This document shows, piece by piece, positions 40,453-64,000 of a stretch of DNA of 64,000 nt. Positions within the stretch are counted from its first letter, which is position 1, and each line of letters begins with the position of its first letter. The stretch is taken from assembly GCA_965230955.1 (NCBI GenBank), contig OZ246404.1, positions 782,321 to 846,320 on the forward strand, read 5' to 3'. The notes under the pieces were generated by a model. That model did no database searches. It was given only the letters and a program-made list of their open reading frames with translations, and had not been told where the DNA came from. Position numbers and translations under genes: made by a program. Origin of the DNA: an uncultured Candidatus Saccharibacteria bacterium (GTDB lineage Bacteria; Patescibacteriota; CALEFQ01).

Positions 40453-40457
40453 AAATT

Positions 40458-49433: not shown

Positions 49434-50462
49434 TCAAATAACCCGTTCCCGATTCGCCGGGAAAGTGACGGCTTGTGTGATATTAGGTTGTCCCAAGAGC
49501 CACTGCATGATCCGCGCCAAGCCGAAGCCGCAGCCGGCGTGCGGCACGCTACCCTTTTGTTTGGTGTGCACCAGATACCAGTTAAAATCATCCAGCGATC
49601 CGCCTTTTTGTTTCAGGCGTTTAAACATCCGGGATTTTTTCAGACGCGATTCCAATTCCCGCGGATTATGCACCCGCGCCGCCGCCCCGACCGCTTCCCC
49701 GCCGTAAGGCAAGATGAGGTCGGCACTCAGCACCCGCCCCGGATTGGCGCGATCGGGAATCATGTTGAAAAATTTTTCCACTTCGATTTTTCCGTGCCGG
49801 CGCCATTGCGGATCGGGAAAGCGCACCAGAAAAATCGGCTGATTGCCATACGCCACCAGCAATTTTCGCTCCCGCGCCGAAGAAATATCGTCGCCCCATT
49901 CGATCTCCTCGCCCAGAGTTTGCAGCTTCTTGATCGCTTGATCGTAAGTCAATTTGGGAAACTTCAGCGGACAAAGCGATAACTCATTTATCCGGTGCTC
50001 TAATCCCAAGGCTCGCAGATCGGCCGCCGGCAAACTGAGCAATCCCCGCACGATCGCGTTAAGAAAGCCTTCGATGTAAGACAGCAGTTCATCGAAACCG
50101 CCGGCGAACTCAATTTCCACCAAGGTAAACTCGGTCAAATGCCGCTGATCCACCCGCGGCTCGGCTCGGAAACTCGGCCCAACACAATAAACTTTGCGCA
50201 GTTTCGGGACATACGCTTCCAGATAGAGCTGGCCGGTCTGCGCCAGGTAAACTTGTTTCGGTTTGCCCGCCGGCGTGAACCAGCGGGGATGGCGAGCGAC
50301 TGTCACCTGAAACAGAGTGTCGATGTTTTCGCAGGCGCCGCTGGCCCGAACGATCCGCGGCGGTAGCATCTCGTAGAAACCCTGGTCGTCGAGATATCGA
50401 CGACCGAACTTGAGCGCGTAGTGCTCGACTAGCGCGACTTGTTGGTCAATCATTTTTTTCAC
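49434..50462 (-). CDS. class II aminoacyl-tRNA-synthetase catalytic-core paralog (AsnRS/AspRS-like) lacking the anticodon-binding domain; an AsnA-type aspartate-ammonia ligase or similar
   Basis: Class II motif 2 GPSFRAE and motif 3 HAGCGFGLARIMQWLLG. Only about 340 aa, with no N-terminal OB fold. Confidence 0.6.
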   Translation of the reverse strand: MKKMIDQQVALVEHYALKFGRRYLDDQGFYEMLPPRIVRASGACENIDTLFQVTVARHPRWFTPAGKPKQVYLAQTGQLYLEAYVPKLRKVYCVGPSFRAEPRVDQRHLTEFTLVEIEFAGGFDELLSYIEGFLNAIVRGLLSLPAADLRALGLEHRINELSLCPLKFPKLTYDQAIKKLQTLGEEIEWGDDISSARERKLLVAYGNQPIFLVRFPDPQWRRHGKIEVEKFFNMIPDRANPGRVLSADLILPYGGEAVGAAARVHNPRELESRLKKSRMFKRLKQKGGSLDDFNWYLVHTKQKGSVPHAGCGFGLARIMQWLLGQPNITQAVTFPANRERVI

Positions 50463-50790
50463 TTATTAATGGATAAAAAAATTCCCCCGAGCTCGGGGGA
50501 AGAAATGGATTGAAATTGGACGTCGGCGTTTTCTCAGCGCCGGGAGCGATGAGAAAAAAAATAGTCCCCGGTGGGGACATTTTGCCTGAGGAAACCGCGA
50601 TAGTTTTTGTATCTGGAGGTGTGTCATTTAATAATTTTACATTTTCACTATCATATACCCTCCGGCCGAAAAGGGACAATAATACTTATGTGGATAACTA
50701 TTTTTATCAAAACAGGCGCGGCCAGCCAAATAGACTGGCAGCCGCGCCGGTAATAGATTTTGGTGACAAGGCATGGGCGGGAAAATGCTT

Positions 50791-51585
50791 TTAGCGCAAA
50801 GTGCCGCCGAAAACCTGCCAGGCCAGCAATGATTTGGCCACCAAACTCAGAATGATGTAGACATATTCGCCGTAGACGTAACTGCGCCACTTCCCCACTT
50901 TCTTGTATTGCAGAACAATATTGAAGGCGAAAATGGCAAACGAGATGAAAATGGTGACAAAGATCCAATAGACAAAATCGGGAATTTTGGAACCTTCTTG
51001 GCTGCCGGTACCGATCAAGTAAATCATCAAGATAATCCAGGGAATAATCCCGGCGATACAGCCGAACCAGTACGGCATCCAGTCGACGGACTTTTCCGGT
51101 TGGCGATTCATCTTTTCCATGAGCCAGCCAAAAAGGATCATCATGGCATTGAGCGAGAACATCAGGATCAGCGTGGCGAAATCATAAATGCCGGCCAGCA
51201 TGGCAATGGCCACGATCATAATCGAAGAGCTGAAGGAATACTCGATCCAACGCGCCGGGTTGATGCCGTTAGAAATATTTTTGACGTACCAGCGGTTAAT
51301 ACCCGGTAGAACCACCATCAGGTGAGCAAAAGCCGATATAAAAAGGAAAGAGGCCACGAGAGGACCAAACGGGATCTCGAAAACCGTCTCGATATTCGGC
51401 CAGATTTTCTGCATCATCGGATTGAATTTCAGAAAAGAGGTGGTCACCGGCAGAGAAAAATCGTTGCTCAAATAGAGCATCAGTCCGCCTTGGATGGCGT
51501 GTAAAACCGCCATCACGGCGTTAAAAATCCGCAGTTTTCGAAAACCGGCGGCATCGGCCTGGATGACAGGTTTGGGCTCTTTCAT
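50791..51585 (-). CDS. heliorhodopsin (7-TM retinal protein, HeR family)
   Basis: Strong similarity by recall to heliorhodopsin 48C12: RWIEYSFSSSIMIVAIAMLAGI, MILFGWLMEK, PYWFGCIAGIIPWIILMIYLIGTGS, and YIILSLVAKSLLAWQVFGGTL, with the Schiff-base Lys in TM7. The length is 264 aa. Confidence 0.85.
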   Translation of the reverse strand: MKEPKPVIQADAAGFRKLRIFNAVMAVLHAIQGGLMLYLSNDFSLPVTTSFLKFNPMMQKIWPNIETVFEIPFGPLVASFLFISAFAHLMVVLPGINRWYVKNISNGINPARWIEYSFSSSIMIVAIAMLAGIYDFATLILMFSLNAMMILFGWLMEKMNRQPEKSVDWMPYWFGCIAGIIPWIILMIYLIGTGSQEGSKIPDFVYWIFVTIFISFAIFAFNIVLQYKKVGKWRSYVYGEYVYIILSLVAKSLLAWQVFGGTLR

Positions 51586-51812
51586 AGGTTTTATGTTAGT
51601 TAGATTTATTGAAATGATACCAGGTTTTTTCTAAAACCTGGCTACTGCAGTCGAGCCGATAATTATTTTTTAGCCTAGGAATCCACTTCGGGAACGGCTC
51701 AAAAATAATTATCGGCTTGGCTTAAATAAGCAGTGTGGAAGAACAACTTAGTATGAGTTCATTACTACTGCAAGTGTATCACATTTCGCCGGGAAAATCA
51801 GCCTCGGCGCTT

Positions 51813-52511
51813 CTAAAGGTAATACCCGCCGCTATTCTTTTTCAGCCATTTCCGGCGCGACAAATAATCAGGATCCAGCCGCGCGACTTCTTGCCAAAAG
51901 GTGCGAGAATGATTGGGGTGGCGCAAATGGGCCAATTCGTGATTGATCACATAATCAATCAGCGCCGGAGGCAACATGACCAAACGCCAGGTGAAATTGA
52001 GATTCCCGGAACTGCTACACGATCCCCAGCGCGTCCCGGCACTCGTCAGCCGCCAGGAACGATAGCGATAAGCGTAGAGCGCGGCCAATTGATCGAGCCG
52101 GGCGCCGATAATTCTCCGCGCTTCTTTTTTGTACCACGCGATAATTTTTTTCTTCGTCAATCGCGGTCCGCCCTCGGGCAAAAGCAATTCTTTCTTCAAT
52201 GGATTACATTGGGCCGACCGGCCGGTAGCGCCGAAGAATAGTTTGTATTTCTCTCCCAAATACCAAAATTCTTCGCCCGCGACATAGCGATGAACGGGAG
52301 CGAGCGGCCGTGATTTCAAAACCGTCAAACGTTTCTCGATCCAATCGAAGTGCCGCCGGGTGAATCGCTCAATCTCCCCCATTGAAACCCACCAGGGCGC
52401 GCGAATCGTCAGCGTGGCGTCTGGAGCGATCGTCAGCGCCAGCGAGCGCCGGCGGGAACGTTTGAGGCAAAAACGAGCCGGAAACGAATTGATTGTTTCT
52501 TGTTCTGTCAT
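51813..52511 (-). CDS. DUF45/YgjP-family (WLM-like) zinc metallopeptidase
   Basis: HELAHLRHPNHSRTFW zincin motif, and a YgjP-like N-terminal region. Confidence 0.7.
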   Translation of the reverse strand: MTEQETINSFPARFCLKRSRRRSLALTIAPDATLTIRAPWWVSMGEIERFTRRHFDWIEKRLTVLKSRPLAPVHRYVAGEEFWYLGEKYKLFFGATGRSAQCNPLKKELLLPEGGPRLTKKKIIAWYKKEARRIIGARLDQLAALYAYRYRSWRLTSAGTRWGSCSSSGNLNFTWRLVMLPPALIDYVINHELAHLRHPNHSRTFWQEVARLDPDYLSRRKWLKKNSGGYYL

Positions 52512-52593
52512 AAAAAAACGGATGCGGCGACATTAAATCATGCGTTGCCGTTACTATCCTACCAAATAGCCAACACCTGGACAAATGGCAAAA

Positions 52594-52614
52594 GACGTGA
52601 TAAGCTATCACGTC
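52594..52614. promoter_or_regulatory. perfect 9-bp inverted repeat gacgtgata-agc-tatcacgtc in the divergent intergenic region; a candidate operator
   Basis: Located between the DUF45 peptidase start and the 52711 operon start. Confidence 0.3.
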
Positions 52615-52710
52615 TCGAACTACTGCTTGTTTGCCGGGCACAAAAGAAGATACCTTTTTGGTTTTAGATAAATTTGTTATTTTCAACATTCCACACAAAA
52701 GGAGGATATT

Positions 52711-53475
52711 ATGTGGTGGAAAAAAACGTTCATGGTTATAGCAATCGTAATTCTGGTAGCGCTGATGTCTTTACCGCTCGGCTTTTTTGGAGCTTGGAGT
52801 TATTTCAGCAATCAGCTGGGATACTTGCATCTCAATCAATACTGGGCATCTCTGATCTCTCTGGTTTTTGCTCTGATTCTTGTATTCGGCGCAAAAACTT
52901 ATTTGTCTTTCCGCGCTAACAGAAGGACCATCGGTAAAATCACAATTATCGGAACAATAATTCTCTGGCTGATCATCAATGGACTGGCCTGGCAGACGGT
53001 CAACTTTTCTGCCGATGGCCAACCAGTCAAATGGTACGCCAAAAACCCCGACGGAATCAGAGTATTTGACTCACCGGGATTCGACCCGATCTGGAATACC
53101 CCGCTCAAGCCAATTACTCCAGATATTCTGATGCAAATCAAACGACAGTATGCCGATACTCCCCTGTTTCGAATCGACCCGCGGAACACATCAAAATTTT
53201 TCGATCCGCAAACAGGCGCTCCGCTGACTTATTACCAACGAAAGCCAAACGGTTGTCTGGCCATTTTCAATCAACCGGGCTATGACCCGGAAACAGGCAC
53301 CGCTCTGCTTCCCTGCACTCCGGAAATCATCAGAGAGATTTACGCCCAGATTGAAAATCCCGTCTGCCAATCAGAACTGAACAATCTCTTCCTACTCGGT
53401 CAGACACCTCTCAACTTTCAAGAATTCGAAGATTATGTGCGCCACACGGAGAAACTCCGTCCCAAGGAGAAATAG
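52711..53475 (+). CDS. integral membrane protein (3 TM) with an extracytoplasmic domain (hypothetical)
   Basis: AAAAGGAGGATATT-ATG ribosome-binding site. The first gene of a two-gene plus-strand operon. Confidence 0.45.
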   Translation: MWWKKTFMVIAIVILVALMSLPLGFFGAWSYFSNQLGYLHLNQYWASLISLVFALILVFGAKTYLSFRANRRTIGKITIIGTIILWLIINGLAWQTVNFSADGQPVKWYAKNPDGIRVFDSPGFDPIWNTPLKPITPDILMQIKRQYADTPLFRIDPRNTSKFFDPQTGAPLTYYQRKPNGCLAIFNQPGYDPETGTALLPCTPEIIREIYAQIENPVCQSELNNLFLLGQTPLNFQEFEDYVRHTEKLRPKEK

Positions 53476-53477
53476 CC

Positions 53478-54356
53478 ATGTCAAACAGACACTTCGATTT
53501 ACAAGAAAGAGAAAATAGCTTGAGCAGGGAAAAAGAACGAGTTGCAGCACGCAGGAAAAAAGCGGAATTGATACTCCAGGTCGGAGTTTGGTGCATCATT
53601 GGATCCATAATCCTCATAGTAGCGGCACTCTGGTGGGGATATTCCTGGCACTGCCGGAAAATGGCGATCGCCGATTATCGTTATCAGGTTCTGGCCACTT
53701 CAGTCGATTCCGCTAACACCGATAAAGACCAGGACAACGCACTCCTGAAAGTATCATGCCTGGCCGTCTCTCTTTCGAAAACATCCCAGACCGAAGATCT
53801 ATGGGACAAGCTGGACAGATTGAAAGAACTCCAGGAGAAAGTCTCTGTTCAACACAGCACAAACCTGGAATCGCTTCAGCGATTTATACAGCGAGAAGCC
53901 GTTACCGTAAAAAAGTGCCGTGAAGAAAAGGCCAATTGCGGAATCAAGGAATATGACGAGAGAAGGATCATGGCCTGTCAGCCGCTCTCACTCTCCCTCC
54001 AGGAATTGAACAAAATCACCCGCTACAAAAAACAACTTGATCTCAACCGGCGAAGCATGGATGACATGCTTGAGAAAATCGGATTTCTACAGCGCTCGAT
54101 CGGCAATGACATTGATTTTATCAATGCCACCGGCAATTCCTGCGCTGAAGATACCGTGCAGGCAGTGGATCAATTCCTAAAAGATTTTAATCTGCCGCCG
54201 GCTGAAATGTCAAAAATCAATCTGGACAATTTGCCGCCGCTGAATCTGCGTGATGTTTGGAATCTGATAAATGATGACACTGTTTCCCCTAACACACCAT
54301 CGGTTACTCCCACTAACACCGAAAAGAAAGAATCCACTCGCAGGTTCTTCGAATGA
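53478..54356 (+). CDS. membrane-anchored coiled-coil-rich hypothetical protein
   Basis: Its start sits 3 nt after the upstream stop. A single TM helix after a basic N-terminus. Confidence 0.45.
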   Translation: MSNRHFDLQERENSLSREKERVAARRKKAELILQVGVWCIIGSIILIVAALWWGYSWHCRKMAIADYRYQVLATSVDSANTDKDQDNALLKVSCLAVSLSKTSQTEDLWDKLDRLKELQEKVSVQHSTNLESLQRFIQREAVTVKKCREEKANCGIKEYDERRIMACQPLSLSLQELNKITRYKKQLDLNRRSMDDMLEKIGFLQRSIGNDIDFINATGNSCAEDTVQAVDQFLKDFNLPPAEMSKINLDNLPPLNLRDVWNLINDDTVSPNTPSVTPTNTEKKESTRRFFE

Positions 54357-54445
54357 ACCTACCGTTATAAACAGGCCGATCACTTCCAGTGATTCGGCCT
54401 GATTTTTTTTATGAAATTGCTGGAAATAATAATTTCCCTACAAAA

Positions 54446-54760
54446 TTATCGCACCATTTGGAAGATGAACCCGATAACCACCCCGCCGGCCACCCCGGTC
54501 AGGATAATCGGGAGATAAGCGCGCGTGATGATGGCCGAAGGGACACTCAAGCCCGCACCGAGAATCAGTCCGATCAAAGCCGGGTGCAGTCCGAGATCAA
54601 CATTGGGAATCAGAAAACCAAGCATAAATCGCTCGATACCCGCCGCGGCCATCGCTTCCGCACGTTTACGATTATTTTCATACTTGAGCGGGATCATGAT
54701 CAGGACATCAATGATACCAAAGACAAGACCGAAAATCAGACCGAGAAAAAGATTATTCAT
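54446..54760 (-). CDS. small 3-TM membrane protein (hypothetical)
   Basis: ORF track. Hydrophobic profile. Confidence 0.4.
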   Translation of the reverse strand: MNNLFLGLIFGLVFGIIDVLIMIPLKYENNRKRAEAMAAAGIERFMLGFLIPNVDLGLHPALIGLILGAGLSVPSAIITRAYLPIILTGVAGGVVIGFIFQMVR

Positions 54761-54793
54761 AGAATTATTTTACCAAACGATTATTCTGAAAAA

Positions 54794-55285
54794 TCAAATA
54801 CCCAATGAAACTTCATGCAAAATAACATCGGCATCGCCGGAAATCTGGCAGTCGATACGGTCGAGCTCCGCCCGGCGCTCAAATAATCGTCCGCCGCCGG
54901 TACATTTCAAATTACCGTCATTGCCCGCGGTAAAAGTAAAAGTCGAATCACTGCGTTTAAGGCGGCCGGTCACGGTATAGCCGCAATCCCCCGCCTGCTC
55001 GATGCACATATCGGTCTTGGCCACGCAGGATCCGGTAGTCGTCAAAGTCACCGTATCGTTTTCCGCTACCGCCAAAACCGATCGATCTTCGGTATCACAA
55101 GTGGAATCAGCACTGACGTACTGGGTGCGCATCTGTTTTCCACTATAATTCATCGGCAAATAATCAAAATTGAGCGGTTTGTCGTTATCATTGATAAATT
55201 CTTCGTCTGCGCCGCAGCCGCTGAGCACAATCATGACCGCGGTCAAAACTAACACCGGCAAAAGTTTGATAAATTTTTGATTCAT
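54794..55285 (-). CDS. Cys-rich lipoprotein (hypothetical)
   Basis: Lipobox LSGC and eight additional Cys residues. Confidence 0.45.
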   Translation of the reverse strand: MNQKFIKLLPVLVLTAVMIVLSGCGADEEFINDNDKPLNFDYLPMNYSGKQMRTQYVSADSTCDTEDRSVLAVAENDTVTLTTTGSCVAKTDMCIEQAGDCGYTVTGRLKRSDSTFTFTAGNDGNLKCTGGGRLFERRAELDRIDCQISGDADVILHEVSLGI

Positions 55286-55321
55286 CGGGTTGGGATTAAT
55301 TATTTTTTATAATTTGTGCAT

Positions 55322-55409
55322 ATTGTGGGGGCGACCCCATGTGGTCGCCCGCCCCAATATCGCCGTTTGGGCATTTTATGGCAGGGCGGCCGCCGGCCGC
55401 CCCTACTGC
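55322..55409. repeat. ~85-bp GC-rich composite repeat, left copy (hairpins ggggcgacc..ggtcgccc and gggcggccgccggccgccc)
   Basis: attgtgggggcgaccccatgtggtcgcccgccccaatatcgccgtttgggcattttatggcagggcggccgccggccgcccctactgc. It matches 56156-56254 at about 75%. Confidence 0.5.
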
Positions 55410-55412
55410 ATT

Positions 55413-56141
55413 TTATATTTTCCTCGCCTGATTGACATACCCGCAATATTCGCAATCCGGCGCCGCCGCGGGGATCGTCTCGCCCGTCAGGCAATCATGG
55501 ATTTTTTCCACTGTCGGCTCGACCCAGTCATCTTTCCCGGTATAGGGAATGATAGTCACGTCGAATTCCAGTTTGCCGTCAAACGCCTTGCGATCCGTCT
55601 TCCCGTTGCAATAGACGAAATACCCGGTGCTCGAAACTTTGTGGCCATTCTTGCGCAGTAGCCACTGGTAAATTTCCATCTGGCGTTTGTAGCCCTCGTG
55701 CCATTCTTTGTCCAGCTTGGTCACCTCTTCCGCCTTGGCGGTGGCTTTGTAATCCACCACAATATATTCGCCCGCTTTATTTTGCCACAGGTCATCGATC
55801 GCGCCGTAAAGCAGTAAATTGGTCGGCTCGTGTAAATATCTGATCCCGGTGAAATTATGGCGCCATTCGGATAGTTTTTCATGATCGATCGGCACGGCAT
55901 CAATCCCGTATTTGGCCATTAGCGGGTGCGTTGTCCCCGCCGCGCGGTGGATATCGAATTCCTTTTTGAGCAAGGTGTCGACAGCCACATTGAGGGTGAA
56001 AGGATATCCCGGCGGGCGTTTGATCCCCAGCCGTTTATCCAAATAAAAACAGCGCGGGCAATTGATGAATAAATCTATCCCCGTCCGGCTGAGTTTGAAT
56101 TGATCTTTGGAGGTGGGATTGAATAATTTACTGGCGTGCAT
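55413..56141 (-). CDS. PD-(D/E)XK nuclease, Cas4/RecB-nuclease-like (DUF83-type) with a four-Cys cluster
   Basis: AIDDLW...GEYIVVDYKAT (D...E.K core). N-terminal CPRC and C-terminal CEYCG cysteines, as in Cas4/AddB Fe-S nucleases. Confidence 0.6.
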   Translation of the reverse strand: MHASKLFNPTSKDQFKLSRTGIDLFINCPRCFYLDKRLGIKRPPGYPFTLNVAVDTLLKKEFDIHRAAGTTHPLMAKYGIDAVPIDHEKLSEWRHNFTGIRYLHEPTNLLLYGAIDDLWQNKAGEYIVVDYKATAKAEEVTKLDKEWHEGYKRQMEIYQWLLRKNGHKVSSTGYFVYCNGKTDRKAFDGKLEFDVTIIPYTGKDDWVEPTVEKIHDCLTGETIPAAAPDCEYCGYVNQARKI

Positions 56142-56155
56142 GGAGGTTATTTTTA

Positions 56156-56254
56156 ATTGTGTAGGGGCGCCCGGCCGGGCGCCCGGAAATATCCGCCGCG
56201 GTGCGCCATAGCAGGGCGGCCGCCGGCCGCCCCTACCATAAAATGCCCAAAAGG
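56156..56254. repeat. ~85-bp GC-rich composite repeat, right copy, plus an inverted 'ccataaaatgccc' tail
   Basis: attgtgtaggggcgcccggccgggcgcccggaaatatccgccgcggtgcgccatagcagggcggccgccggccgcccctaccataaaatgcccaaaagg. Confidence 0.5.
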
Positions 56255-56285
56255 TGATATTCGTTGGGGCACCCCAACAATATAT

Positions 56286-57338
56286 TTACCAATCCGGCCA
56301 TTCGTTGCCGTCGATTGATTTGGTGATATTAGTCAAATTACTGCCATCAACGTTCATGGTGTAGAGATTGGTCCCGATATTATTCCAATCCGGGCCCACC
56401 CCGTAAAAAACCAGTTTGGTGCCGTCGGGCGACACGCGGGGGCGGTGATCGGGAGTCGTATTGACGCTGCTAAGGTGCGAAACCAAAGTCGGGCCGAAAT
56501 CAGATTGCCCCGCGGCCCATTTCTCGTAATCCAGTTTCCAGATTTCTAATTGACTCGTCCGATTGGAAATAAAATACATGGTTTTGCCGTCGGGCGACCA
56601 GCCAGGTTCGTGATCGCTCAAATCTTTGTCAGCAGAAGACAGAATTTCTTTCTCGTCGGTCCCGTCGGATTTGATGGTGTGCAGGCGGAAATCGATATCG
56701 GAGCCGGCTTTATTATAAGAAAAAGCGATCGTGTCATTGTCTACCGGGGACCAGCTTGGCCAGAGCACGGTATTTTCGCCGTCGACAAAAGTTAGCTGTT
56801 TGTTGTTTTGGCCGTGGTCATCCATGACAAATAGATTGGGAATGCCATTGTGTCCGCCGCGATAAGAAATGTAGGCGATCTTTTTGCCGTCCGGCGACCA
56901 GGTGGGAAATTTATCATCCCCCTCGCCAAAAGTGAGTTGCCGGCTTTCACTACCGTCCGCCGTCATTATGAAAATCTTGTCGGTATTGCCTTCGTCCACG
57001 TGCCGCGAGTACGCGATGCGCGAGTAGTCCGGCGACCAGACGGGGTGACTGATGAATTTACCGAAATCGGTCAGTTTCGTTCTGTCGGTGCCGTCGGGAT
57101 TGATGGTATACAAATCATGATCGGCACTGCTCGCCTTCCCGTCAGTGGCGGAGAAAAGGATCTTGCCTTTGTTTTCCGGATTCCCCCCGGCGGGAGAATT
57201 GTAGAGAAGTTTGTATTGGGCGTCGTCGGTTTTGGCGGTATCCGTCGTGTCTTTGTCAGTGGAGACGGGAGTGGTACAGCCGGCGAGAAAAATTAAAGAG
57301 GCGGCGAGAAATAAAAATGGGAGGTGGTGAGATTTCAT
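56286..57338 (-). CDS. TolB-like PD40 beta-propeller lipoprotein
   Basis: Lipobox LAGC and repeated WSPDG / PTWSPDGKKIAY PD40 motifs. Confidence 0.7.
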   Translation of the reverse strand: MKSHHLPFLFLAASLIFLAGCTTPVSTDKDTTDTAKTDDAQYKLLYNSPAGGNPENKGKILFSATDGKASSADHDLYTINPDGTDRTKLTDFGKFISHPVWSPDYSRIAYSRHVDEGNTDKIFIMTADGSESRQLTFGEGDDKFPTWSPDGKKIAYISYRGGHNGIPNLFVMDDHGQNNKQLTFVDGENTVLWPSWSPVDNDTIAFSYNKAGSDIDFRLHTIKSDGTDEKEILSSADKDLSDHEPGWSPDGKTMYFISNRTSQLEIWKLDYEKWAAGQSDFGPTLVSHLSSVNTTPDHRPRVSPDGTKLVFYGVGPDWNNIGTNLYTMNVDGSNLTNITKSIDGNEWPDW

Positions 57339-57768
57339 GGGGGTTGAGTTACTAAATATTCCGGAAGGAATCTATAAGAAAGTAGACTTAAATGCATTAT
57401 AACATGATGGTGGGAAATAGGGAGATTGTATTTTAGACCTTTTTCCGCAAACAACCATTCAGCTCGAACCCGGAATTTGCTGAAGAATATAACAGAAAAA
57501 GCGGTATCGACCGCTTTTTGTCCAAGCTGGCTCAACAAGATGGACATCATCCGAACCTTTTTCCATCGTCACGAGGACGATTGGGTCGTTGTGACGTTTA
57601 TCAAGATCCCCCTGGGACTTTTGCGACTGCCCGACAGAGGGGTAAACCTATGTGAGTATTACCCTGTTTTCTGTTTCTGATTCCAGCGTAGCAAGTTACC
57701 AAATCCTAGCAATGTATTTTTTGTCCAGATGGGCAATAAATATTGCTTATAGTTTCCGCCTATCAAAA

Positions 57769-60507
57769 TTACTTATCGAATAATGTTGGGACATGCCCAT
57801 TAGTAAACCCCTCCAACCCAAGCTCTTCGTGCTTAAGTTCGTCATAACCATCGAAGTCATCGACACCGGAAATATCTGCTGATTTAAAGCCACGTCTTTC
57901 CATAATTTTGTCAACGAGAAAAAATGTCCTTATACCACCCTCCTTCTCTAAAAGTTTTAGTGCCTTTTTACGATCATCTATTTGTTTGGTTTCGGCCAGG
58001 TGTTTGCCCTTCACATCAACAATAATCCATTCACCGTTCATAAAAGCTAAAAAGTCCGGATAAAACGGCGCGGGTTTTACTTCGACTGGATATTCAGTTC
58101 TCGGCTCGTTTCTTACCCAAAAGCTTTTTCTCTTCTTATCCAGTGAGCACAAATGTTCCAATGTATCGGCGACCCATTTTTCCGGCGGACTATCAAACTT
58201 TACGTATGGCCTGATAGAATATTTGTAGTCTTCAACAATCGTGCCCTTCTGCTGTAAATGAGACGACATTTCTTGATATGATGGAATGAGATTTAATATC
58301 TTCCCATCTCTTTTCCTTATCGTAACAGCGCTGTCAATGAAAATATCCTTGACATTCTTTTTTTTAAAATCAAATTGGCTCTTAAACATCAAATCCGAAG
58401 ACCCCTGTTCATAAAACCCCGTAATCTTTTTCTTAAGCGCTCTTAAGGCTCTTTTACGATCGACGGCATACGCAGTATCAACCCGAATACCCGCATCAAA
58501 AATAGACTTAATTAATTTTTCAACCGATTTTCTTGAGATGTCTCCGATGTGAGGTCCCGTTTCGTCGATAAAATCCAGCGCCCAACGTGCTAGATCATTA
58601 TCCGGTAAAGTTAGTGTTACTCGAGTAGTGGCCGGCTTGTCCGTTTTCAATTCAAATTCCGGTCCAGTAACTTCAGCATAATCTACCATCGCCATAACTT
58701 CATCCTTTAACACTCTGTCTCCGCGGGATAAACCACAAGAGTCATCAATAAATGACTTAACGCTCAATTTTTTATCTTTAAGTGCTTCGTCGAAGGTAAT
58801 ACCCGTTGCCACTCGTTTAATTTGTAGGATTGGAATTTGATAATCGTCTATGATCTTACTATTAACTTTGTTTTCTTTATCTTCCTCTTCCGTGGGTATC
58901 TCAACGCTAGCTGGCGATAAAGCAAGATTCTCCCGAATTTCTTCGACAATCCGGTCAAATCTTTTGCCACGTTCGCAGACGACATGCAAAATTTCGCTCT
59001 GCTCCTTCAAATCGTGATCTAACAGATCGTATTCTCGTTTTTCTTTATAAAGACGCAGGCCACGTCCAATTAACTGAGCAGCTGCCAATCCCACATTCTC
59101 TATGGTGTCTCCCAAAACTACGATGGTATAAAAATTATCGTAATCTACGCCTTCGGTAAAAATCCTGACCTGATTTACAATCTCTGCCTTATTGTCATCA
59201 AGCGACTGATAATCAGCCCAGGTTTCTTCATCACTTTTATTTTCGCTATGAATGGTAAAAACGGATTTTGCCAAAGAAGAAAGCTGTTTAACGAGCTCCT
59301 CTTTATTTTTGGGAATGTTATGTCTAACAATTTTGGCGATGTCGGTTCCTTCTAGGTTAACCTGCTCCAGGACGTCATCCAGTTCGCCGGAAACCGAGTC
59401 CGGCCAATTTTTCAAATACACATCCACTGCCTCGGCATGTTTTATGGTTCTTGCCTTAGTGAGCAACATGGATTTTTTAACGGGAGCATTTACGGCGGTT
59501 AAGGAGGCGCGCTTCAAGAGATGAATCAACATGCCCCATATTAACTTTTGCTTGTCGCTTTCATTCACTTCATCGCCGGTTTTTTCTTCTCCTAGCCCGC
59601 ATCCTACTGCAAAAATTCGCTTTCCATAACCTTCGCTGATATATCTCTGCATCGGATATTTATAGAGATTGTCCTGGCCAAAGCTTTCACTGTCGTTTTT
59701 CTCCAAAGACGTAGCGGTAAATTCCAATACCATGCTTGGCAATAATTCGAAAATTGCTTCGGTGGTTTTCTTTTGTTGATAGTGATGGGCCTCGTCCGAA
59801 ATTATAACCAGCCGTCTTTCTCTTAAAAATTCAATAAATGAAATAGTATGATTTCCGCTTTTATCTCGCCATAGCGATTCTTCCAATGGACGTCTTACGT
59901 ATGGTACGCCCTTCATGGTATCCTCGCCGTCTTTCTGATTGGCCGTTCCTCTGTCATAAAACTTCTGCATGTTAAAAACGTAGAACGTGATGTCCTTACC
60001 ATCTTCATAGTTACAGGTTTTATCCCGATAGGAATTACCGGTTACGAGATTGTAAGTTAAATTCCAGCCATCGCCAAAAATACTTTTAACGGCTCTGGGA
60101 GTGAAATTCTCAATGGTCTTATCAAAAAGAATCGTGTTAGGAGTTAAGATAAGAAAATCTTTGTGTCCGCGGTTATATAAATCCAAAATCATCGCTCCCA
60201 TCAGTAAAGTCTTCCCGGAACCGGTGGCCATTTCGAAACCAATTTTATTCCACTGGACAATTTTATCTTCGTCGTCTCTGCTCTGCTGGACGGTCTTTTG
60301 CTTAATGCTTCTGCTATCAAATTTATTATTCAGGAAAAGCTGAAAAGCGCCCATGGCTTCTATTTGATAGGGTCGCATTGGAAACTTAAGCAGGTGCTGT
60401 ATTTTATCGTAATTCTCTATAATCTTAGGTGAAGCGGAACCGACAGCAATTTTATATTGCTGGTCCTCACTTACCGAATCGTAAAATGTTTTTTGTTTAA
60501 TTTTCAT
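57769..60507 (-). CDS. res: Type III restriction enzyme, Res subunit (SF2 helicase-nuclease)
   Basis: Walker A ATGSGKT, DEAH box VIISDEAHH, and helicase motif VI QLIGRGLR. The length is 912 aa. It overlaps mod by 4 nt. Codons are AT-rich. Confidence 0.85.
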   Translation of the reverse strand: MKIKQKTFYDSVSEDQQYKIAVGSASPKIIENYDKIQHLLKFPMRPYQIEAMGAFQLFLNNKFDSRSIKQKTVQQSRDDEDKIVQWNKIGFEMATGSGKTLLMGAMILDLYNRGHKDFLILTPNTILFDKTIENFTPRAVKSIFGDGWNLTYNLVTGNSYRDKTCNYEDGKDITFYVFNMQKFYDRGTANQKDGEDTMKGVPYVRRPLEESLWRDKSGNHTISFIEFLRERRLVIISDEAHHYQQKKTTEAIFELLPSMVLEFTATSLEKNDSESFGQDNLYKYPMQRYISEGYGKRIFAVGCGLGEEKTGDEVNESDKQKLIWGMLIHLLKRASLTAVNAPVKKSMLLTKARTIKHAEAVDVYLKNWPDSVSGELDDVLEQVNLEGTDIAKIVRHNIPKNKEELVKQLSSLAKSVFTIHSENKSDEETWADYQSLDDNKAEIVNQVRIFTEGVDYDNFYTIVVLGDTIENVGLAAAQLIGRGLRLYKEKREYDLLDHDLKEQSEILHVVCERGKRFDRIVEEIRENLALSPASVEIPTEEEDKENKVNSKIIDDYQIPILQIKRVATGITFDEALKDKKLSVKSFIDDSCGLSRGDRVLKDEVMAMVDYAEVTGPEFELKTDKPATTRVTLTLPDNDLARWALDFIDETGPHIGDISRKSVEKLIKSIFDAGIRVDTAYAVDRKRALRALKKKITGFYEQGSSDLMFKSQFDFKKKNVKDIFIDSAVTIRKRDGKILNLIPSYQEMSSHLQQKGTIVEDYKYSIRPYVKFDSPPEKWVADTLEHLCSLDKKRKSFWVRNEPRTEYPVEVKPAPFYPDFLAFMNGEWIIVDVKGKHLAETKQIDDRKKALKLLEKEGGIRTFFLVDKIMERRGFKSADISGVDDFDGYDELKHEELGLEGFTNGHVPTLFDK

Positions 60508-62270
60508 AATAAATTGTATTCTCTTAAAATCGCTGTCGGGATTTTCCTAATGAGCACGCGATCATCAAGCGACTCATTTGGCACGGCAACAGCCATGTTA
60601 GTGAAAATCGTAAGATGTCTAAATTTTTCTTTGTCTAGGCCGGCAACGATTTTATTATAAGTGTCTTCATCAAGAGGCTTAACTTCCCTCGAAGCAAAAG
60701 AAAGGGCGTAGTTATAAGTAGCCGACCTGTGTTTACCTAGATACATTTTTTCTTTTTCCAGCCAATCAGCTTTAACTGGCTTATATTGAAAGTGCAGAAA
60801 AATTGCCTCAGCCATTTCTTCGGCCTTAAGCATCCAATTCATATCCTGTTCACGAATTAAGCTCTCACCAAGTTGATAGTATTTAAAACCACCGCCACCC
60901 TGCCAATTCGCATCTTTACTTACACCAGTTTGGTCACTTCCATTCGTTACTTTCTGCAAACGTGGAATAATGAGTTCATCGGCCTGTCGGCCCATTTCGA
61001 CCATTAACCATCGCCGTTTCATTTTTTGTGCTACTGCGCCGGTAGTTCCACTGAAAGCAAAAGTATCTAAAACAATGTCGTTTTCCTGTGTGGACATGCC
61101 TATAATCCGATGCAAAAGTCTTTCTGGTTTTCTTGTTCTATCTTCTCCTTTTATGCCGCCTTCGCCCCTAGCCGCATTTGAGACATCTTCCTTAGTCCAA
61201 AAATCACTTGGTTTTTCAAACTTATATATTACATCCTTTTCATTACTTGCTACAGATGATAGCCAACCGCACAATGCTTTCCCAAAATAGAAGTTCGTAG
61301 TAAGAGTGTCTACATTTTTTCCACGGCTCGGTGTATACTCCACCGAATAAAGCCCTTTATCCATCTGATCCATCAGCTCATGTTGAAATTTATTCTCTTT
61401 TTGCACTAAAAAGGTTCGGAAAATTTTATCAAAATTTTTCTTATAAAAATCTTTAAACTTCTTTCGGCTGTCTTCCAATTCATTAAATGGTATTCGTTCA
61501 ATTTTATAATTATCGTGTTTAAAAATCTTTACTGGCTCTTTATTTGATTTTGAAAGAAACTCCTTTACCAACTTTTTATTACCTTCGCTGATAAGAATCT
61601 GCCCATATCCTTTCAATTTTTCATATTCAAAAACTTTTTTAACGGTAAAATCTGCATTTATTGTGAGGCTTGTTTTTTCTTTTGCATAAACAAGAATATA
61701 TTCGGTCACATTTGCGAGCATTTTTCCTCCCAACCCTAAGCCAGCTACAGCTGAACGCTCCCATGCTACTTGCGATATAAAATTGTCGCGTCCGAATACC
61801 TCATCCATTAAAACTTTAAGATAGCCCTGCTCAATATCATCAATGTGCACAAAAATGACCCCATCGTGTCTCAATAATTTTCGCAGAAGACGAAGCCGAT
61901 CCCGCATCATGGTTAACCACTGAGAGTGTTGTAAATTATCCTCGTATCTTTCAAACGCATTTCCGGTATTAAAAGGAGGATCAATGTATATGCATTTAAC
62001 TCTCTCTTCGTCCGGCTTACCTTTGAACATTTCCACCAAACTTCGCAAAACCAACAGATTATCACCTTTGATAAGCATGTTTCCGCTAGTTTTATCTCCG
62101 TAGCCTTTGACGAAGCGTAAAATACGAGGCTCTGCAACCCGGATGTCGTTTTTTGGTACCCAAACCGGTCGAACGCCCTTACCTTCTTTTTCATCAATCT
62201 CATAGTAAAGAGAAAGGTCTTTATTGATCCAGTTTAATTGAAGTGATCCTTTGTGGTTCTTTTTCCGCAC
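60504..62270 (-). CDS. mod: Type III restriction-modification Mod subunit (N6-adenine/N4-cytosine DNA methyltransferase)
   Basis: IYIDPPFNTG (DPPF/Y catalytic motif IV) and the SAM-binding region. It has the mod-then-res order. Confidence 0.85.
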   Translation of the reverse strand: MRKKNHKGSLQLNWINKDLSLYYEIDEKEGKGVRPVWVPKNDIRVAEPRILRFVKGYGDKTSGNMLIKGDNLLVLRSLVEMFKGKPDEERVKCIYIDPPFNTGNAFERYEDNLQHSQWLTMMRDRLRLLRKLLRHDGVIFVHIDDIEQGYLKVLMDEVFGRDNFISQVAWERSAVAGLGLGGKMLANVTEYILVYAKEKTSLTINADFTVKKVFEYEKLKGYGQILISEGNKKLVKEFLSKSNKEPVKIFKHDNYKIERIPFNELEDSRKKFKDFYKKNFDKIFRTFLVQKENKFQHELMDQMDKGLYSVEYTPSRGKNVDTLTTNFYFGKALCGWLSSVASNEKDVIYKFEKPSDFWTKEDVSNAARGEGGIKGEDRTRKPERLLHRIIGMSTQENDIVLDTFAFSGTTGAVAQKMKRRWLMVEMGRQADELIIPRLQKVTNGSDQTGVSKDANWQGGGGFKYYQLGESLIREQDMNWMLKAEEMAEAIFLHFQYKPVKADWLEKEKMYLGKHRSATYNYALSFASREVKPLDEDTYNKIVAGLDKEKFRHLTIFTNMAVAVPNESLDDRVLIRKIPTAILREYNLL

Positions 62271-62417
62271 AATATTATATAAATAATCAGCACTGCTAAT
62301 TTCGATAACTTTAAATTATTTGTTAAACGAAGAACTATAGTGCCGGTTATTACTTATCACATACATGAGTATATTTATTATGATAACACAGCAGAACTAG
62401 ACCGGAAAGGGATCGAA

Positions 62418-62444
62418 GGATCAACCAGGACTCGAACCTGTCCC
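62418..62444 (-). other. tRNA-like 3' fragment (T-arm GGTTCGAGTCC plus the acceptor strand) with no complete tRNA; a possible integration-site remnant
   Basis: On the minus strand: gggacAGGTTCGAGTCCTGgttgatcc. No convincing D or anticodon arms are found upstream of it. Confidence 0.35.
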
Positions 62445-62460
62445 TTCCCTTATCTAAGCC

Positions 62461-62484
62461 AAAACCCCTTTCTAGGGGTTTTTT
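62461..62484. terminator. bidirectional hairpin terminator aaaacccct-ttct-aggggtttttt
   Basis: A 7-bp stem with a 4-nt loop, flanked by A4 and T6. Confidence 0.45.
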
Positions 62485-62739
62485 GATGCTGTTCACTCGA
62501 ACTCGTTTTTTTGGCTTCACTTAGCGAAAATTTGTATTCAAAGACAAATAAAAATTCATTGGCTCGCCAGGCTGGACTCGATCACTAAGACTTTTCTTCT
62601 TCCTTTATCACCACAAAGTCAAAGGCTTCGGCATGGTCTATCCGAGCTTGTCGAGGTGCCCTTCGTAAGCTCGGGGCTGGCTCAAGTCTAGAAAAAAAGC
62701 CTCACCCTTCACGGTGAAGCTTTTTTAACGGCCGGCTAA

Positions 62740-64000
62740 TCAATACTGATTACTGTTTTTGAAATAATGCCCGCGAAGCGAACTATTCGCCCAGAGCATC
62801 CAGACATCCACAAAACCGTCAGCGACACTCGGACCGTTGGCGAAACCAAAACTTACTTGGCAACCATGGTCATTGGCGGTAATCGTGCAGAGATCAGCCG
62901 TGGTTTGGCCAGCATCAACGGCACCGGAGAAATAAACACCTTTATTGAAACCCCAATAATCACAAAAGTCATGAGTCCCGCTTTCATTGGTTAATTTAAA
63001 ATTTGCCGCGGTGCTCGAAACTTTCGTGCCGATCAATTGGCAGGCCTCACCGGGGTAGCCGGACTCCGCTTCCAGTACAATGACCGGATTCGTATTCGGG
63101 AAACTTAAATTTATCTGCCCCACTTCCGACCCGAGATTGCGCCCGTCCACCGTATCTGCGTCCAGGCCCGAGCCCGAACCGTCGGCTATCTTGCTGGCAG
63201 AAATGGCCGCGCTGGAACTGATATCAGCGTCCATAATCGAACTGTTGACAATTTCTATACTACCGACCGTGTTCGCTCCCAACTGGAGATTGTTATACAG
63301 GCCACTGACATCCCCGCCGAAAGTGGAAGTCAAGACCAAGGCCGTGCCAGAGATTTTGCTCGCCGCAATCCCCGCGCTGGAACTGATATCGGAATCCATA
63401 ATCGCTCCACTAGCAATTTCGGCACTGCCGACCGTATTCGCTCCCAGCTGGAGATTGTTATACAGGCCACTGACATCCCCGCCGAAAGTGGAAGTCAAAA
63501 TCAGCGCTGTGCCTGAAATCTTACTGGCAGCAATCCCCGCGCTGGCGCTGATATCGGAATTTGTTAATGATCCGTCTTCTAATTCGGTCGAACCTACTTT
63601 TCCGCTACCGATCAGTAAATTATTATAACCCCCGCTGACATCACCGCCGAAAACGGTCGCTTGCACCAAAGCCGTACCGGAAATTTTACTGGCGGCAATC
63701 GCTCCGCTGGCGCTGATATCCGCGTCCGTCAAAGATCCGTCCGCCAATTCGGTCGAACCGACTTTGCCACTGCCGATTTGCAGATTACTGTAAACTCCGC
63801 TGACATCTCCCCCAAAAACCGTCGACTGGATCAGGGCCACGCCGGAAATCTTGTTTGGGCTGAGCGACCCCTCGCCGATTTCTCCCACGCTGGCATTGAA
63901 ATTTGTTTTATGCGCCACCAGATTTTCCACTTCAATTTCATTGACCGTCAGTTTCCCGGAAAAAAATCCATCGCGAAATTTTTTACTTTCACTGCCCAGT
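62740..64000 (-). CDS. phage tail-fibre-like repeat protein (partial; the N-terminus is beyond the window end) with four or more tandem 55-aa repeats and a Cys-containing C-terminal domain
   Basis: The reading frame stays open past 63930 to the window edge. Repeats ISGTAL..TFGGDVSG.YNNLQ.G...VGS.E...GS..D.DISSSAGIAASK. A DADTVDGRNLG motif resembles the tail-fibre/tail-collar 'DADTLDGxH' repeat. The C-terminal region has 4 Cys. Confidence 0.5.
   Translation of the reverse strand, partial: LGSESKKFRDGFFSGKLTVNEIEVENLVAHKTNFNASVGEIGEGSLSPNKISGVALIQSTVFGGDVSGVYSNLQIGSGKVGSTELADGSLTDADISASGAIAASKISGTALVQATVFGGDVSGGYNNLLIGSGKVGSTELEDGSLTNSDISASAGIAASKISGTALILTSTFGGDVSGLYNNLQLGANTVGSAEIASGAIMDSDISSSAGIAASKISGTALVLTSTFGGDVSGLYNNLQLGANTVGSIEIVNSSIMDADISSSAAISASKIADGSGSGLDADTVDGRNLGSEVGQINLSFPNTNPVIVLEAESGYPGEACQLIGTKVSSTAANFKLTNESGTHDFCDYWGFNKGVYFSGAVDAGQTTADLCTITANDHGCQVSFGFANGPSVADGFVDVWMLWANSSLRGHYFKNSNQY
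63050..63710. repeat. tandem 165-nt (55-codon) near-identical DNA repeats inside the tail-fibre-like gene
   Basis: For example, 63291-63342 and 63456-63508 share gttatacaggccactgacatccccgccgaaagtggaagtcaa exactly. There are about four units. Confidence 0.5.

Follow-up and report, generated by a model that had tools for sequence, protein, structure and literature searches.

Introduction

REPs of the GTAG type are short stem-loops with an unpaired GTAG at one end; they have stems of 5-13 bp and a small loop (~20-40 bp altogether), form head-to-head dimers with units 20-100 bp apart, and lie mostly between codirectional or convergent ORFs (Di Nocera et al., 2013, PMC3733652). Patescibacteria are not among the phyla of that 2013 survey, and REP doublets that, spacer included, form a single hairpin as ssDNA or RNA have been defined elsewhere as REPINs (Bertels and Rainey, 2011, PMC3116915). 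No paper on Patescibacteria REPs came up in a full-text literature search. The genomes of this group are usually thought to be repeat-poor. The second kind of known system relevant to this work is the PD-(D/E)XK nuclease domain of Cas4 and AddB, whose canonical cysteines are one N-terminal Cys and a CX2CX5C cluster.

We analyzed a 64-kb window (the whole stretch of 64,000 nucleotides) in which a PD-(D/E)XK nuclease gene is bracketed by GC-rich repeats. The original prediction had read this arrangement as a cassette or small mobile module, as a tightly insulated unit, or as a candidate standalone defense or repair nuclease. We concluded that the locus most likely consists of two separate things side by side, a conserved nuclease gene and REP doublets in the adjoining spacers, and not of a cassette.

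Results

Anatomy of the Flanking Repeats

Table 1 lists the features of the locus. As originally described, a single 242-aa gene lies between two imperfect GC-rich copies. Alignment of the left copy (55320-55406) with the right copy (56156-56236) gave 66 identical columns out of 91, or 73% (z = 13; none of 1000 shuffles reached the score), close to the 75% first proposed. Each copy contains two perfect GC-rich hairpins, again as proposed, at 55329-55350 and 55384-55402 on the left and at 56165-56184 and 56214-56232 on the right. Most of the direct-repeat identity resides in an exact 26-mer, GCAGGGCGGCCGCCGGCCGCCCCTAC, at 55381 and 56211 (28 out of 29 nt identical when extended), of which no further copy was found in the 64 kb (0 expected by chance). 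The direct similarity of the flanks outside this block is 66% (z = 5.2). The inverted left segment reported in the right copy is real and larger than claimed: 56237-56283 is a 47-nt inverted copy of 55320-55380, with 42 out of 47 ungapped positions matching and a 14-nt deletion (z = 14), so that the right spacer runs in the order direct arm, shared hairpin, inverted arm.

TABLE 1. Features of the nuclease locus (window coordinates)
Feature	Position	Strand	Evidence or remark
Segment without DNA match in L003; includes left REP doublet and four genes	52461-55392		blastn breakpoints 55392 and 52460
Lipoprotein-like neighbor gene	54794-55285	-	Same strand as nuclease
Left doublet, outer REP unit, GTGG-tagged stem-loop GTGGGGGCGACCCCATGTGGTCGCCC	55325-55350	+	Hairpin scan; comparison with L008 and L006
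Left doublet spacer with AATATCGCCG (CGGCGATATT on gene strand) and GGGCATTTTATGG	55351-55383		Sequence
Left doublet, inner REP unit H2, GTAGGGGCGGCCGGCGGCCGCCC on minus strand	55384-55406	-	GTAG-tagged stem-loop; exact 26-mer common to 56211-56236
RecB/Cas4-like PD-(D/E)XK nuclease gene, 242 aa	55413-56141	-	ORF, Pfam, alignment, AlphaFold model
Right doublet, REP unit by gene start, GTAGGGGCGCCCGGCCGGGCGCCC	56161-56184	+	Hairpin scan
Right doublet spacer, GGAAATATCCGCCGCGGTGCGCCATAGCA	56185-56213		Sequence
Right doublet, second REP unit, H2 copy, identical and in same orientation as 55384-55406	56214-56236	-	Repeat search
Extra arm of right spacer: inverted, partly deleted copy of left spacer and left outer REP	56237-56283	-	z = 14
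Upstream neighbor of nuclease, PD40/TolB-like beta-propeller lipoprotein; not part of element	56286-57338	-	Pfam and other profiles; synteny with relatives breaks here

The four REP units are 23-26 nt long with GC stems of 9-11 bp, which is within the size range of GTAG REPs. An unpaired GTAG directly precedes the stem in three out of four units; the fourth, the left outer unit, has GTGG, drifted from GTAG. The tags face outward in both spacers as in head-to-head dimers, the inter-unit spacer measures 33 nt on the left and 29 nt on the right, and both REP-bearing spacers are extragenic, between minus-strand genes. No other REP units were found in the 64-kb window: all four are beside the nuclease gene, in two adjacent spacers. 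Judged by their sequence, the flanks are most likely head-to-head doublets of GTAG-tagged REPs, in line with the REP-like nature suggested at the outset, and the layout of their units is that of REPINs (Bertels and Rainey, 2011, PMC3116915). By virtue of the extra arm, in which GGGCATTTTATGG is found together with a short palindrome (GTTGGGGCACCCCAAC, 56263-56278), the right spacer is a REP trimer.

The left H2 unit begins 6 nt past the nuclease stop codon, and the CTAC end (gene strand) of the right unit at 56161-56184 lies 19 nt upstream of the nuclease ATG. An outer palindrome, ATATTGTGGGG...CCCCAATAT, at 55320-55360 encloses the left outer REP, which has counterparts in two relatives, GTAGGGGCGACCCCGTGTGGTCGCCC in L008 and GTAGGGGCGGCCCCATGTGGCCGCCC in L006; in the latter, a base-pair change from A:T to G:C maintains the stem. 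On visual inspection, a CGGCGAT(W)(W)T-related motif recurs in the right doublet spacer as well as in those of the L008 doublet and the L003 REPs. In the predicted fold of the right doublet, the units 56161-56184 and 56214-56236 base-pair with each other to form a single long hairpin (z = -2.4), and the L008 doublet also folds as one long hairpin (z = -5.9); the left doublet is predicted to form two separate hairpins instead of one. Two candidate features were rejected. A 9-nt direct repeat, GCATTTTAT, on either side of the left H2 hairpin resembles a target-site duplication, but ATAAA(A)TGC directly 3' of the stop codon is also found in L003 and is thus ancestral. The GGCCCGCCGAATCGGCGGGCC hairpins at 43257, 43327, 25725, and 33764 belong to a different palindrome family; those at 43257 and 43327 carry terminator-like T-tails.

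REPs and RAYT Genes in Relatives and Other Genomes

Next to the orthologous nuclease gene of the close relative L003 (82% nt identity), directly downstream, is a Y1 transposase (RAYT) gene preceded by GTAGGGGCGTAATGCATTACGCCCCTAC. It takes the place of four genes in the window, for which Pfam gave no matches, and L003 has no upstream doublet. This RAYT scores 31.1 bits with Pfam Y1_Tnp (cutoff 23) and 66 bits with NCBIfam REP_Tyr_transpos (cutoff 80); its HUH motif and Tyr are conserved, and several homologues are named RayT in the source databases. In two other Patescibacteria contigs, L257 and L259, REPs of the GTAGGGGCG type lie on both sides of the RAYT genes and also interrupt them. Neither tblastn with 120 RAYTs nor an HMM search of the six-frame translation detected a RAYT in the 64-kb window, and no close orthologue of the L003 RAYT was found in the protein database; mobilization in this organism is unsupported on both counts.

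In both the window and L003, the same three genes lie downstream of the nuclease gene: YgjP-like, heliorhodopsin, and AsnRS-type (86, 92, and 85% nt identity, respectively). The REPs vary from one relative to the next: L007 has none, L006 has a remnant only, and L008 has the upstream doublet only, while in L003 and L007 the nuclease gene is preceded by an ordinary hairpin-plus-T-run. At the upstream position, the window and L008 have doublets of different REP sequence types, which may have been inserted independently instead of being orthologous. Among 80 nuclease homologues at 60-71% identity none has REP flanks, and the homologues of the TolB-like gene (69-73% identity) are in unrelated contexts without the nuclease. 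Synteny breakpoints between the window and its relatives fall at the REPs.

REPs of these types are also found in other genomes. They occur in other spacers of close relatives (L006, 4083-4220; L008, 35-60), and the exact 23-mer of the H2 unit turned up in 48 genomic stretches of GTDB species that span many phyla, in a scan set that does not include the source genome. These occurrences, among them ~30 contigs of one Deltaproteobacteria MAG, have the hairpin alone in common and not the flanking DNA. A degenerate REP pattern gave at least 120 matches in viral contigs.

Are the Hairpins Dedicated Regulators?

Promoter and terminator scans of the two spacers gave nothing convincing on the sense strand. 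The sole hit to an intrinsic terminator criterion in these spacers is antisense (56263-56278, plus strand), and the scan gives as many hits as expected from shuffled sequence. For the proposed insulated unit, which would have a terminator and promoter to itself, the sense strand lacks a terminator signature. An Rfam search of 54500-57500 at permissive thresholds gave a best score of 22 bits, compared with gathering scores of 50-100, at E > 0.3. These results bear on the possibility that selection keeps the hairpins as regulators, with one acting as terminator or insulator after the TolB-like gene and others as 5' leader and 3' stabilizer of the nuclease mRNA. Such a role would be consistent with spacers that fold more stably than shuffled sequence (z = -2.0 to -2.9), with REP-type hairpins at the same two positions in some relatives ~18% diverged in coding DNA, with the stem-preserving A:T to G:C change in one REP, and with the known effects of REPs, which stabilize upstream mRNA and attenuate transcription (PMC3733652). 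However, no T-tract follows any sense-strand hairpin, terminator-like hits are no more frequent than in shuffles, no Rfam family matches, and other genes of the window use a different, T-tailed hairpin (43257 and 43327). The same hairpins are also found beside unrelated genes and within RAYT ORFs, most nuclease homologues are without them, and L003 and L007 have the hairpin-plus-T-run upstream in their place. We therefore consider dedicated regulation unlikely; a side effect of the REP hairpins on RNA is possible.

The Nuclease and the Defense Question

Pfam PDDEXK_1 (PF12705) matches the nuclease at 50.9 bits (cutoff 22; E = 2.6e-13, whole protein), in support of the proposed Cas4-like PD-(D/E)XK identity. 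In an alignment of 35 homologues with 87 invariant columns, the catalytic motif D116/D117...D130-Y-K132 plus Q154xxxY158 is invariant, and so are CPRC (residues 28-31) and CEYC (230-233). The four-cysteine cluster of the original prediction thus stands, while its D...ExK core has to be corrected to D...DxK. The cysteine pairs are C28xxC31 and C230xxC233; C217 is nearly invariant, and there is no CX5C. A sequence search of the PDB gave no match at E <= 1. The AlphaFold model (pLDDT 83) most resembles RecE, the AdnAB nuclease, Cas4, MGME1, and Exo5, with moderate TM scores of 0.40-0.47. Going by profile and motifs, the protein is a member of the RecB/Cas4-like PD-(D/E)XK superfamily with terminal cysteine pairs. 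Its fold and motifs point to a metal-dependent DNA-end or ssDNA exonuclease in repair or recombination, in which a Cys4 site (Fe-S or Zn) would staple the N- and C-termini.

The protein search returned more than 8000 homologous database clusters. The best 120 of these are ~70% (66-88%) identical to the query, and all taxon-named ones among them are Patescibacteria/Parcubacteria. The 236 ORFs adjoining 80 homologous nuclease genes fall into 203 clusters, and no recurrent neighbor family of any kind was found across the 80 loci. A 331-aa second PDDEXK_1 protein precedes the nuclease in L003 and L007 and was considered as an obligate partner; since neither the window nor any of the 80 more distant loci has it, the candidate was dropped. 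The nuclease is most likely vertically inherited and highly conserved across Patescibacteria (CPR bacteria). Since the more than 8000 conserved homologues are in unrelated neighborhoods, a housekeeping role fits better than defense, and these comparisons suggest that the nuclease carries out housekeeping DNA-end processing.

The context noted earlier is accurate: the gene is next to the TolB-like lipoprotein gene and 1.6 kb from the Type III res and mod genes (57769-62270), and it is a lone nuclease, with no CRISPR-like array in the 64-kb window and no Cas family among the 11 other genes scanned against Pfam (49434-63930). It is quite improbable that it is a standalone anti-phage nuclease, an orphan Cas4 or a new system tied functionally to the Type III RM genes. 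PADLOC and NCBIfam Cas4 models do match it weakly, at E values from 1e-8 to 1e-10, but both curated Cas4 models score below cutoff (TIGR00372, 34.7 vs. 65; PF01930, 19.8 vs. 22.7). Cas4-family nucleases are known from defense contexts, for example the Argonaute-associated ACE1, which is among the fold matches, and Type III res and mod are nearby. The RM genes, however, are not beside the nuclease in close relatives, and across the 80 loci restriction/methylase genes make up two small neighbor clusters of 3 loci each. The size and conservation of the family (more than 8000 matches) and its unrelated neighborhoods also argue against a defense nuclease.

Is the Nuclease a Mobile Cargo?

In a rival reading, repeat-gene-repeat is a mobile cargo, moved as ssDNA by a RAYT or IS200/IS605-type Y1 transposase in trans or inserted by REP-REP recombination. 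In L003, however, the nuclease gene is a conserved anchor: it keeps its position relative to the YgjP, heliorhodopsin, and AsnRS genes, its DNA divergence is similar to theirs, and it is the REPs that vary among relatives. The original prediction had named homologous loci with the gene and without the repeats as evidence against a block, and this is what we found, with one doublet, a remnant, or none in relatives and REP flanks in 0 out of 80 distant homologues. The window has no second copy of the unit and no transposase, and the flanks are just 73% alike. Thus neither a transposase nor extra copies nor an empty site, as expected of an IS200/IS605-type element or composite transposon, was found; the last was sought among TolB-like gene homologues, whose three contexts are unrelated and hence uninformative. 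Against this stand the direct hairpin-bearing copies that flank the nuclease, the inverted outer arms (55320-55380 and 56237-56283; z = 14) that bound the unit, the RAYT gene that abuts the orthologous nuclease gene in L003, and the immediate neighbors, which vary among relatives with synteny breaks exactly at the REPs. On balance we regard a mobile cassette as very unlikely. A REPtron-like frame in which the nuclease is cargo mobilized by a RAYT in trans, or cooperates with a neighboring RAYT on REP ssDNA, is highly doubtful as well; if true, either would be the first RAYT/REP system to carry or use a host nuclease, in streamlined Patescibacteria genomes.

Discussion

We favor the explanation of a conserved nuclease gene with REP doublets in the adjoining spacers. 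The doublets (REPINs) would be non-autonomous elements, which a RAYT would recognize and cut as single-stranded hairpins at the GTAG tag. With roughly 60 spacers in all, two doublets would fall in neighboring ones by chance with a probability of ~3%, by a rough estimate. Chance clustering is therefore unlikely and a former RAYT locus seems to be needed: in this lineage a RAYT/REP locus may once have been next to the nuclease gene, as it still is in L003, and the window organism, which has no RAYT within 64 kb, would have kept doublets on both sides. Three features make these doublets look like relics that are ageing: one tag has drifted to GTGG, one arm is partly deleted, and the copies share just 73% identity. 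The exception would be the shared hairpin of 29 nt, probably homogenized by gene conversion or replaced recently. The direct-repeat appearance would then reflect two members of one REP doublet family in adjacent spacers rather than duplication or insertion of a cassette. Since the doublets coincide with synteny breaks, they may have acted as hot spots of recombination or insertion. Any effects on expression would be side effects, for example protection of mRNA 3' ends or displacement of the -35 region found upstream in relatives.

A gene between similar GC-rich hairpin elements can mimic a cassette, and here the elements are most likely selfish REP doublets in two adjacent spacers. GTAG-type REP and RAYT systems occur in Patescibacteria, with genomes of ~1 Mb. 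The match between REP positions and local breaks in gene order might be useful for marking rearrangements in uncultured Patescibacteria. The nuclease family is large, strongly conserved, and uncharacterized, with an unusual CxxC...CxxC putative metal site, and would be a reasonable target for the study of DNA-end processing in CPR bacteria.

Comparison With Known Systems

The flanks resemble GTAG REP dimers and REPINs (Di Nocera et al., 2013, PMC3733652; Bertels and Rainey, 2011, PMC3116915) in tag, stems, outward inverted units, and extragenic site, and further likenesses are the trimer arrangement in one spacer and the RAYT beside the orthologous locus of L003. Compared with REPINs, the doublets of the window are heterodimers, 73% alike, with one GTGG tag, and the four units surround one gene with no RAYT within 64 kb. 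Unlike the surveyed hosts of GTAG REPs, the host here has a ~1.1-Mb Patescibacteria genome. A REPtron, that is, a RAYT gene flanked by its REPs, is like the window in having a single gene between REP doublets with inverted outer arms, and true REPtrons of GTAGGGGCG-type REPs are present in L003 and the Kuenenbacteria contig L257. The gene bracketed here, in contrast, is a PD-(D/E)XK nuclease with no HUH/Tyr motifs and no similarity to RAYT.

The nuclease shares with Cas4 (TIGR00372, PF01930; PDB 4IC1, 4R5Q, 8D3L) a RecB-like core, the D/DxK/QxxxY motifs, a size of ~200-240 aa, and N- and C-terminal cysteines that could tie the ends round a metal site. The best match of each Cas4 PDB entry has a Foldseek probability of 0.98-1.0, but the TM scores are only 0.36-0.45, and the nuclease differs from Cas4 in falling below both model thresholds, with no array in the window and no cas gene among the scanned neighbors. 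Its cysteines, CxxC...CxxC, also depart from the Cas4/AddB arrangement. The best folds are the AdnAB/AddAB nuclease domains, RecE, lambda exonuclease, human MGME1, and Exo5 (E = 3e-5 to 1e-3; AddAB, 1.6e-2), all DNA-end or ssDNA exonucleases of the same superfamily, with AddB and Exo5 among the Fe-S-stapled ones. The nuclease differs from them in being a 242-aa protein that stands alone, and the window encodes no helicase partner; identity to these proteins is 10-19% at TM scores of 0.29-0.48.

Repeat architecture of the nuclease flanks

Alignment of the two GC-rich elements beside the nuclease gene (left 55320-55406, right 56156-56236) gave 66 identical columns out of 91 (73%) with a z score of 13 that none of 1000 shuffles reached, and the direct repeats of the original prediction are thus real. 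They share an exact 26-mer, GCAGGGCGGCCGCCGGCCGCCCCTAC, at 55381 and 56211, with no further copy in the window and zero expected by chance; without this block the direct similarity is 66% (z = 5.2). At 56237-56283 the right spacer also contains the predicted inverted copy of the left element's outer part (55320-55380), in which 42 of 47 ungapped positions are identical apart from a 14-nt deletion (z = 14). The left side therefore consists of an arm plus the shared hairpin, and the right side of an arm, the shared hairpin and an inverted arm. Two hairpins, perfect and GC-rich, are found on each side, as had been described.

The units are stem-loops of 23-26 nt that start with an unpaired GTAG, with one exception tagged GTGG (see the table). 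In both spacers (144 bp and 127 bp) the paired units face each other, tags outward, with 29-33 nt between them. The right doublet is predicted to fold into one long hairpin and the left doublet into two. The flanking elements have no Rfam match, and neither spacer carries a terminator signature on the sense strand. The REP-like (repetitive extragenic palindrome) reading is borne out by these head-to-head doublets of GTAG stem-loops and by the members found in relatives and in other phyla.

Features of the window and of related contigs (L numbers)
Feature	Position	Strand	Remark
REP unit GTGGGGGCGACCCCATGTGGTCGCCC	55325	plus	tag drifted to GTGG
REP unit GTAGGGGCGGCCGGCGGCCGCCC	55406 and 56236	minus, both	shared hairpin, exact 23-mer
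REP unit GTAGGGGCGCCCGGCCGGGCGCCC	56161	plus	GTAG-tagged stem-loop
23-mer, example sites among L129-L176	L155:3379-3457; L169:1672-1731; L132:3486-3549
Nuclease gene	55413-56141	minus	242-aa ORF
Upstream neighbour	56286-57338	minus	PD40/TolB-like lipoprotein gene
Downstream neighbour	54794-55285	minus	small lipoprotein-like gene
Genes without Pfam match	52461-55392		163-aa lipoprotein, 104-aa membrane protein, divergent 292-aa and 254-aa proteins
TATAAT box	L003:5985-6000; L006:942-957; L008:927-942		6 nt 5' of nuclease ATG
Second PDDEXK_1 gene	L003:4913-5908; L007:901-1890		329-331 aa, own C-terminal cysteine cluster
In-frame GTAG REP units/doublets in RAYT ORFs	L003:7170-7290; L257:10271-10343; L259:9651-9780
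Heliorhodopsin gene	50791-51585		Pfam E = 2e-100; protein 96% identical to that of L003
Second palindrome family GGCCCGCCGAATCGGCGGGCC	43257-43277; 43327-43347; 25719-25751; 33764-33784		first two between convergent genes, T-tailed, terminator-like
Variant of GGCCCGCCGAATCGGCGGGCC	L003:7176-7197		in frame within RAYT ORF
Tandem-heptamer hairpin spacers	1229-1303; 13739-13825; 16520-16612; 6891-6954; 23715-23748; 40454-40489; 47822-47997
165-nt tandem repeat	63188-63852		about 4 copies, 62-83% identical
ORF holding the 165-nt repeat	62740-63930	minus	396 aa, no Pfam match
tmRNA gene	23752-24138		tag VKTFISNVKSAFAPSFAPAIA
tRNA-Leu(CAG) gene	15554-15640

Apart from the palindrome family GGCCCGCCGAATCGGCGGGCC, several other spacers of the window carry hairpins of tandem heptamers, among them (AGTAACA)n facing (TGTTACT)n, (GTCTTTA)n and (AAGTCAA)n. 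These form a separate class of AT-rich intergenic repeat, found repeatedly along the window.

REP units and RAYT genes in other genomes

Among close relatives, contig L008, whose nuclease is 88% identical, carries a head-to-head doublet, GTAGGGGCGACCCCGTGTGGTCGCCC ... GGGCGGCCACGCAGGGCCGCCCCTAC, at the same site upstream of the gene and one more REP unit in a different spacer. Contig L006 (85%) has only a remnant, CCGCCCCTAC, upstream of the gene and three units in another spacer, one of which keeps its stem by a two-sided A:T to G:C change. In contig L003 (82%) the nuclease stop codon is followed immediately by a degraded form of the shared hairpin, next by GTAGGGGCGTAATGCATTACGCCCCTAC and then by a gene for a 199-aa Y1 transposase. 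This protein matches Pfam Y1_Tnp (31.1 bits, cutoff 23) and scores 66 bits, below the cutoff of 80, with the NCBIfam model for REP-associated tyrosine transposase (RAYT); it retains the HUH motif and Tyr, and several homologues are named RayT in their source databases. RAYT homologues of two other Patescibacteria contigs, L257 (Candidatus Kuenenbacteria) and L259, are flanked by head-to-head GTAGGGGCGTAT... REP doublets.

The RAYT ORFs of L003, L257 and L259 themselves contain REPs, at a variable site, common to all three, that separates the HUH motif from the catalytic Tyr. Aligned as protein, the insert has the sequence VGAY...TP, translated from GTAGGGGCGTA..., a motif that the shorter homologues P0153 and P0179 do not have; it appears that REPs inserted into the gene of their own transposase and left the frame unbroken.

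Among GTDB species genomes, 48 stretches contain an exact match to the 23-mer of the shared hairpin. The sequence is multi-copy in a 63%-GC Deltaproteobacteria MAG (PFUG01; about 30 contigs, often tandem arrays) and is also found in Acidobacteriota, Dongiaceae, Thermodesulfobacteriota and others; across these phyla the hairpin alone is conserved and the flanks differ. An identical REP core in unrelated phyla points either to a single RAYT specificity class that is widespread or to horizontal spread. A degenerate REP pattern gave at least 120 matches even among viral contigs.

Synteny and origin of the locus

Downstream of the nuclease gene (82% DNA identity) L003 and the window share a backbone of YgjP-like (86%), heliorhodopsin (92%) and AsnRS-type (85%) genes, so the nuclease gene is an orthologue that has kept its place. 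The interval between nuclease and YgjP is occupied in L003 by the RAYT gene and in the window (55392 to 52461) by the left doublet together with four genes of unknown function. On the upstream side, L003 and another relative, L007, have a second PDDEXK_1 gene directly before the nuclease gene, L008 has NUDIX, and the window has the TolB-like gene and Type III restriction-modification genes. Thus the REP doublets are located exactly at synteny breakpoints. The second PDDEXK_1 gene is found neither in the window nor at 80 more distant loci.

GC-rich GTAG hairpins adjoin the nuclease homologue at none of 80 distant loci (60-71% identity), which, with the orthology to L003, speaks against the proposal that the gene is a mobile cassette. 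No empty site was found among homologues of the TolB-like gene, whose contexts are unrelated. The window has no RAYT, and the protein database, which includes the proteins of the source genome, contains no close orthologue of the RAYT of L003; the window REPs are therefore probably orphans.

The REP anatomy, the REP members in relatives and other phyla, the RAYT adjoining the L003 orthologue and the conserved gene position point to the following model. An ancestral RAYT/REP locus would have adjoined the nuclease gene, and REP doublets would have seeded both spacers beside it. The RAYT may have been lost or moved in the lineage of the window, with other DNA gained at the REP sites, and gene conversion or recent replacement may have kept the 29-nt shared hairpin identical while the remainder drifted.

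The nuclease and its expression

The PD-(D/E)XK assignment is correct: the protein matches Pfam PDDEXK_1 (50.9 bits), and D116/D117, D130-Y-K132, Q154 and Y158 are invariant in 35 homologues, as are C28, C31, C230 and C233 (C217 nearly so). It falls below the Cas4 cutoffs (TIGR00372, 34.7 vs 65; PF01930, 19.8 vs 22.7). Cas4 and AddB have a single N-terminal Cys plus CX2CX5C, whereas the cysteines here are arranged as CxxC...CxxC, so that they could bind either an Fe-S cluster or Zn. No PDB entry matched by sequence. The AlphaFold model (pLDDT 83, pTM 0.83) matched RecE, the AdnAB nuclease domain, Cas4 (4R5Q, 4IC1), MGME1, lambda exonuclease and Exo5 (E about 3e-5 to 1e-3, TM-scores 0.29-0.47), every one of which processes DNA ends or ssDNA.

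With the protein as query, more than 8000 clusters were found. The best 120 of these are 66-88% identical, and their taxon-named members are all Patescibacteria/Parcubacteria. At 50% identity there are 317 representatives with E <= 1e-30. The gene neighbourhoods of the family are unrelated, with 236 adjacent ORFs falling into 203 clusters. Such a large conserved family without common neighbours fits a housekeeping repair or recombination enzyme rather than the defence nuclease originally envisaged.

In L003, L006 and L008 a TATAAT box lies so near the nuclease ATG that the mRNA may be leaderless. In the window, 19 nt separate the ATG from the end of the REP doublet, which covers the site of the relatives' -35 region, and a weak AAAAAT (56149-56154, minus strand) is the sole remaining box-like sequence; the gene may therefore rely for its expression on transcription reading through from the TolB-like gene.

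Comparison with known systems

A full-text literature search found no paper on REP/RAYT systems in Patescibacteria, and their existence there is a modest point of interest. The GTAG REP doublets and the PDDEXK_1 nuclease both belong to already known kinds. Published GTAG REPs have stems of 5-13 bp and form mainly head-to-head dimers 20-100 bp apart, at times trimers, between ORFs of the same or converging direction, frequently with adjacent RAYT genes (PMC3733652), and the anatomy of the window flanks agrees with this description. As doublets, they also agree with the description of REPINs, REP doublets able to fold into one hairpin (PMC3116915).
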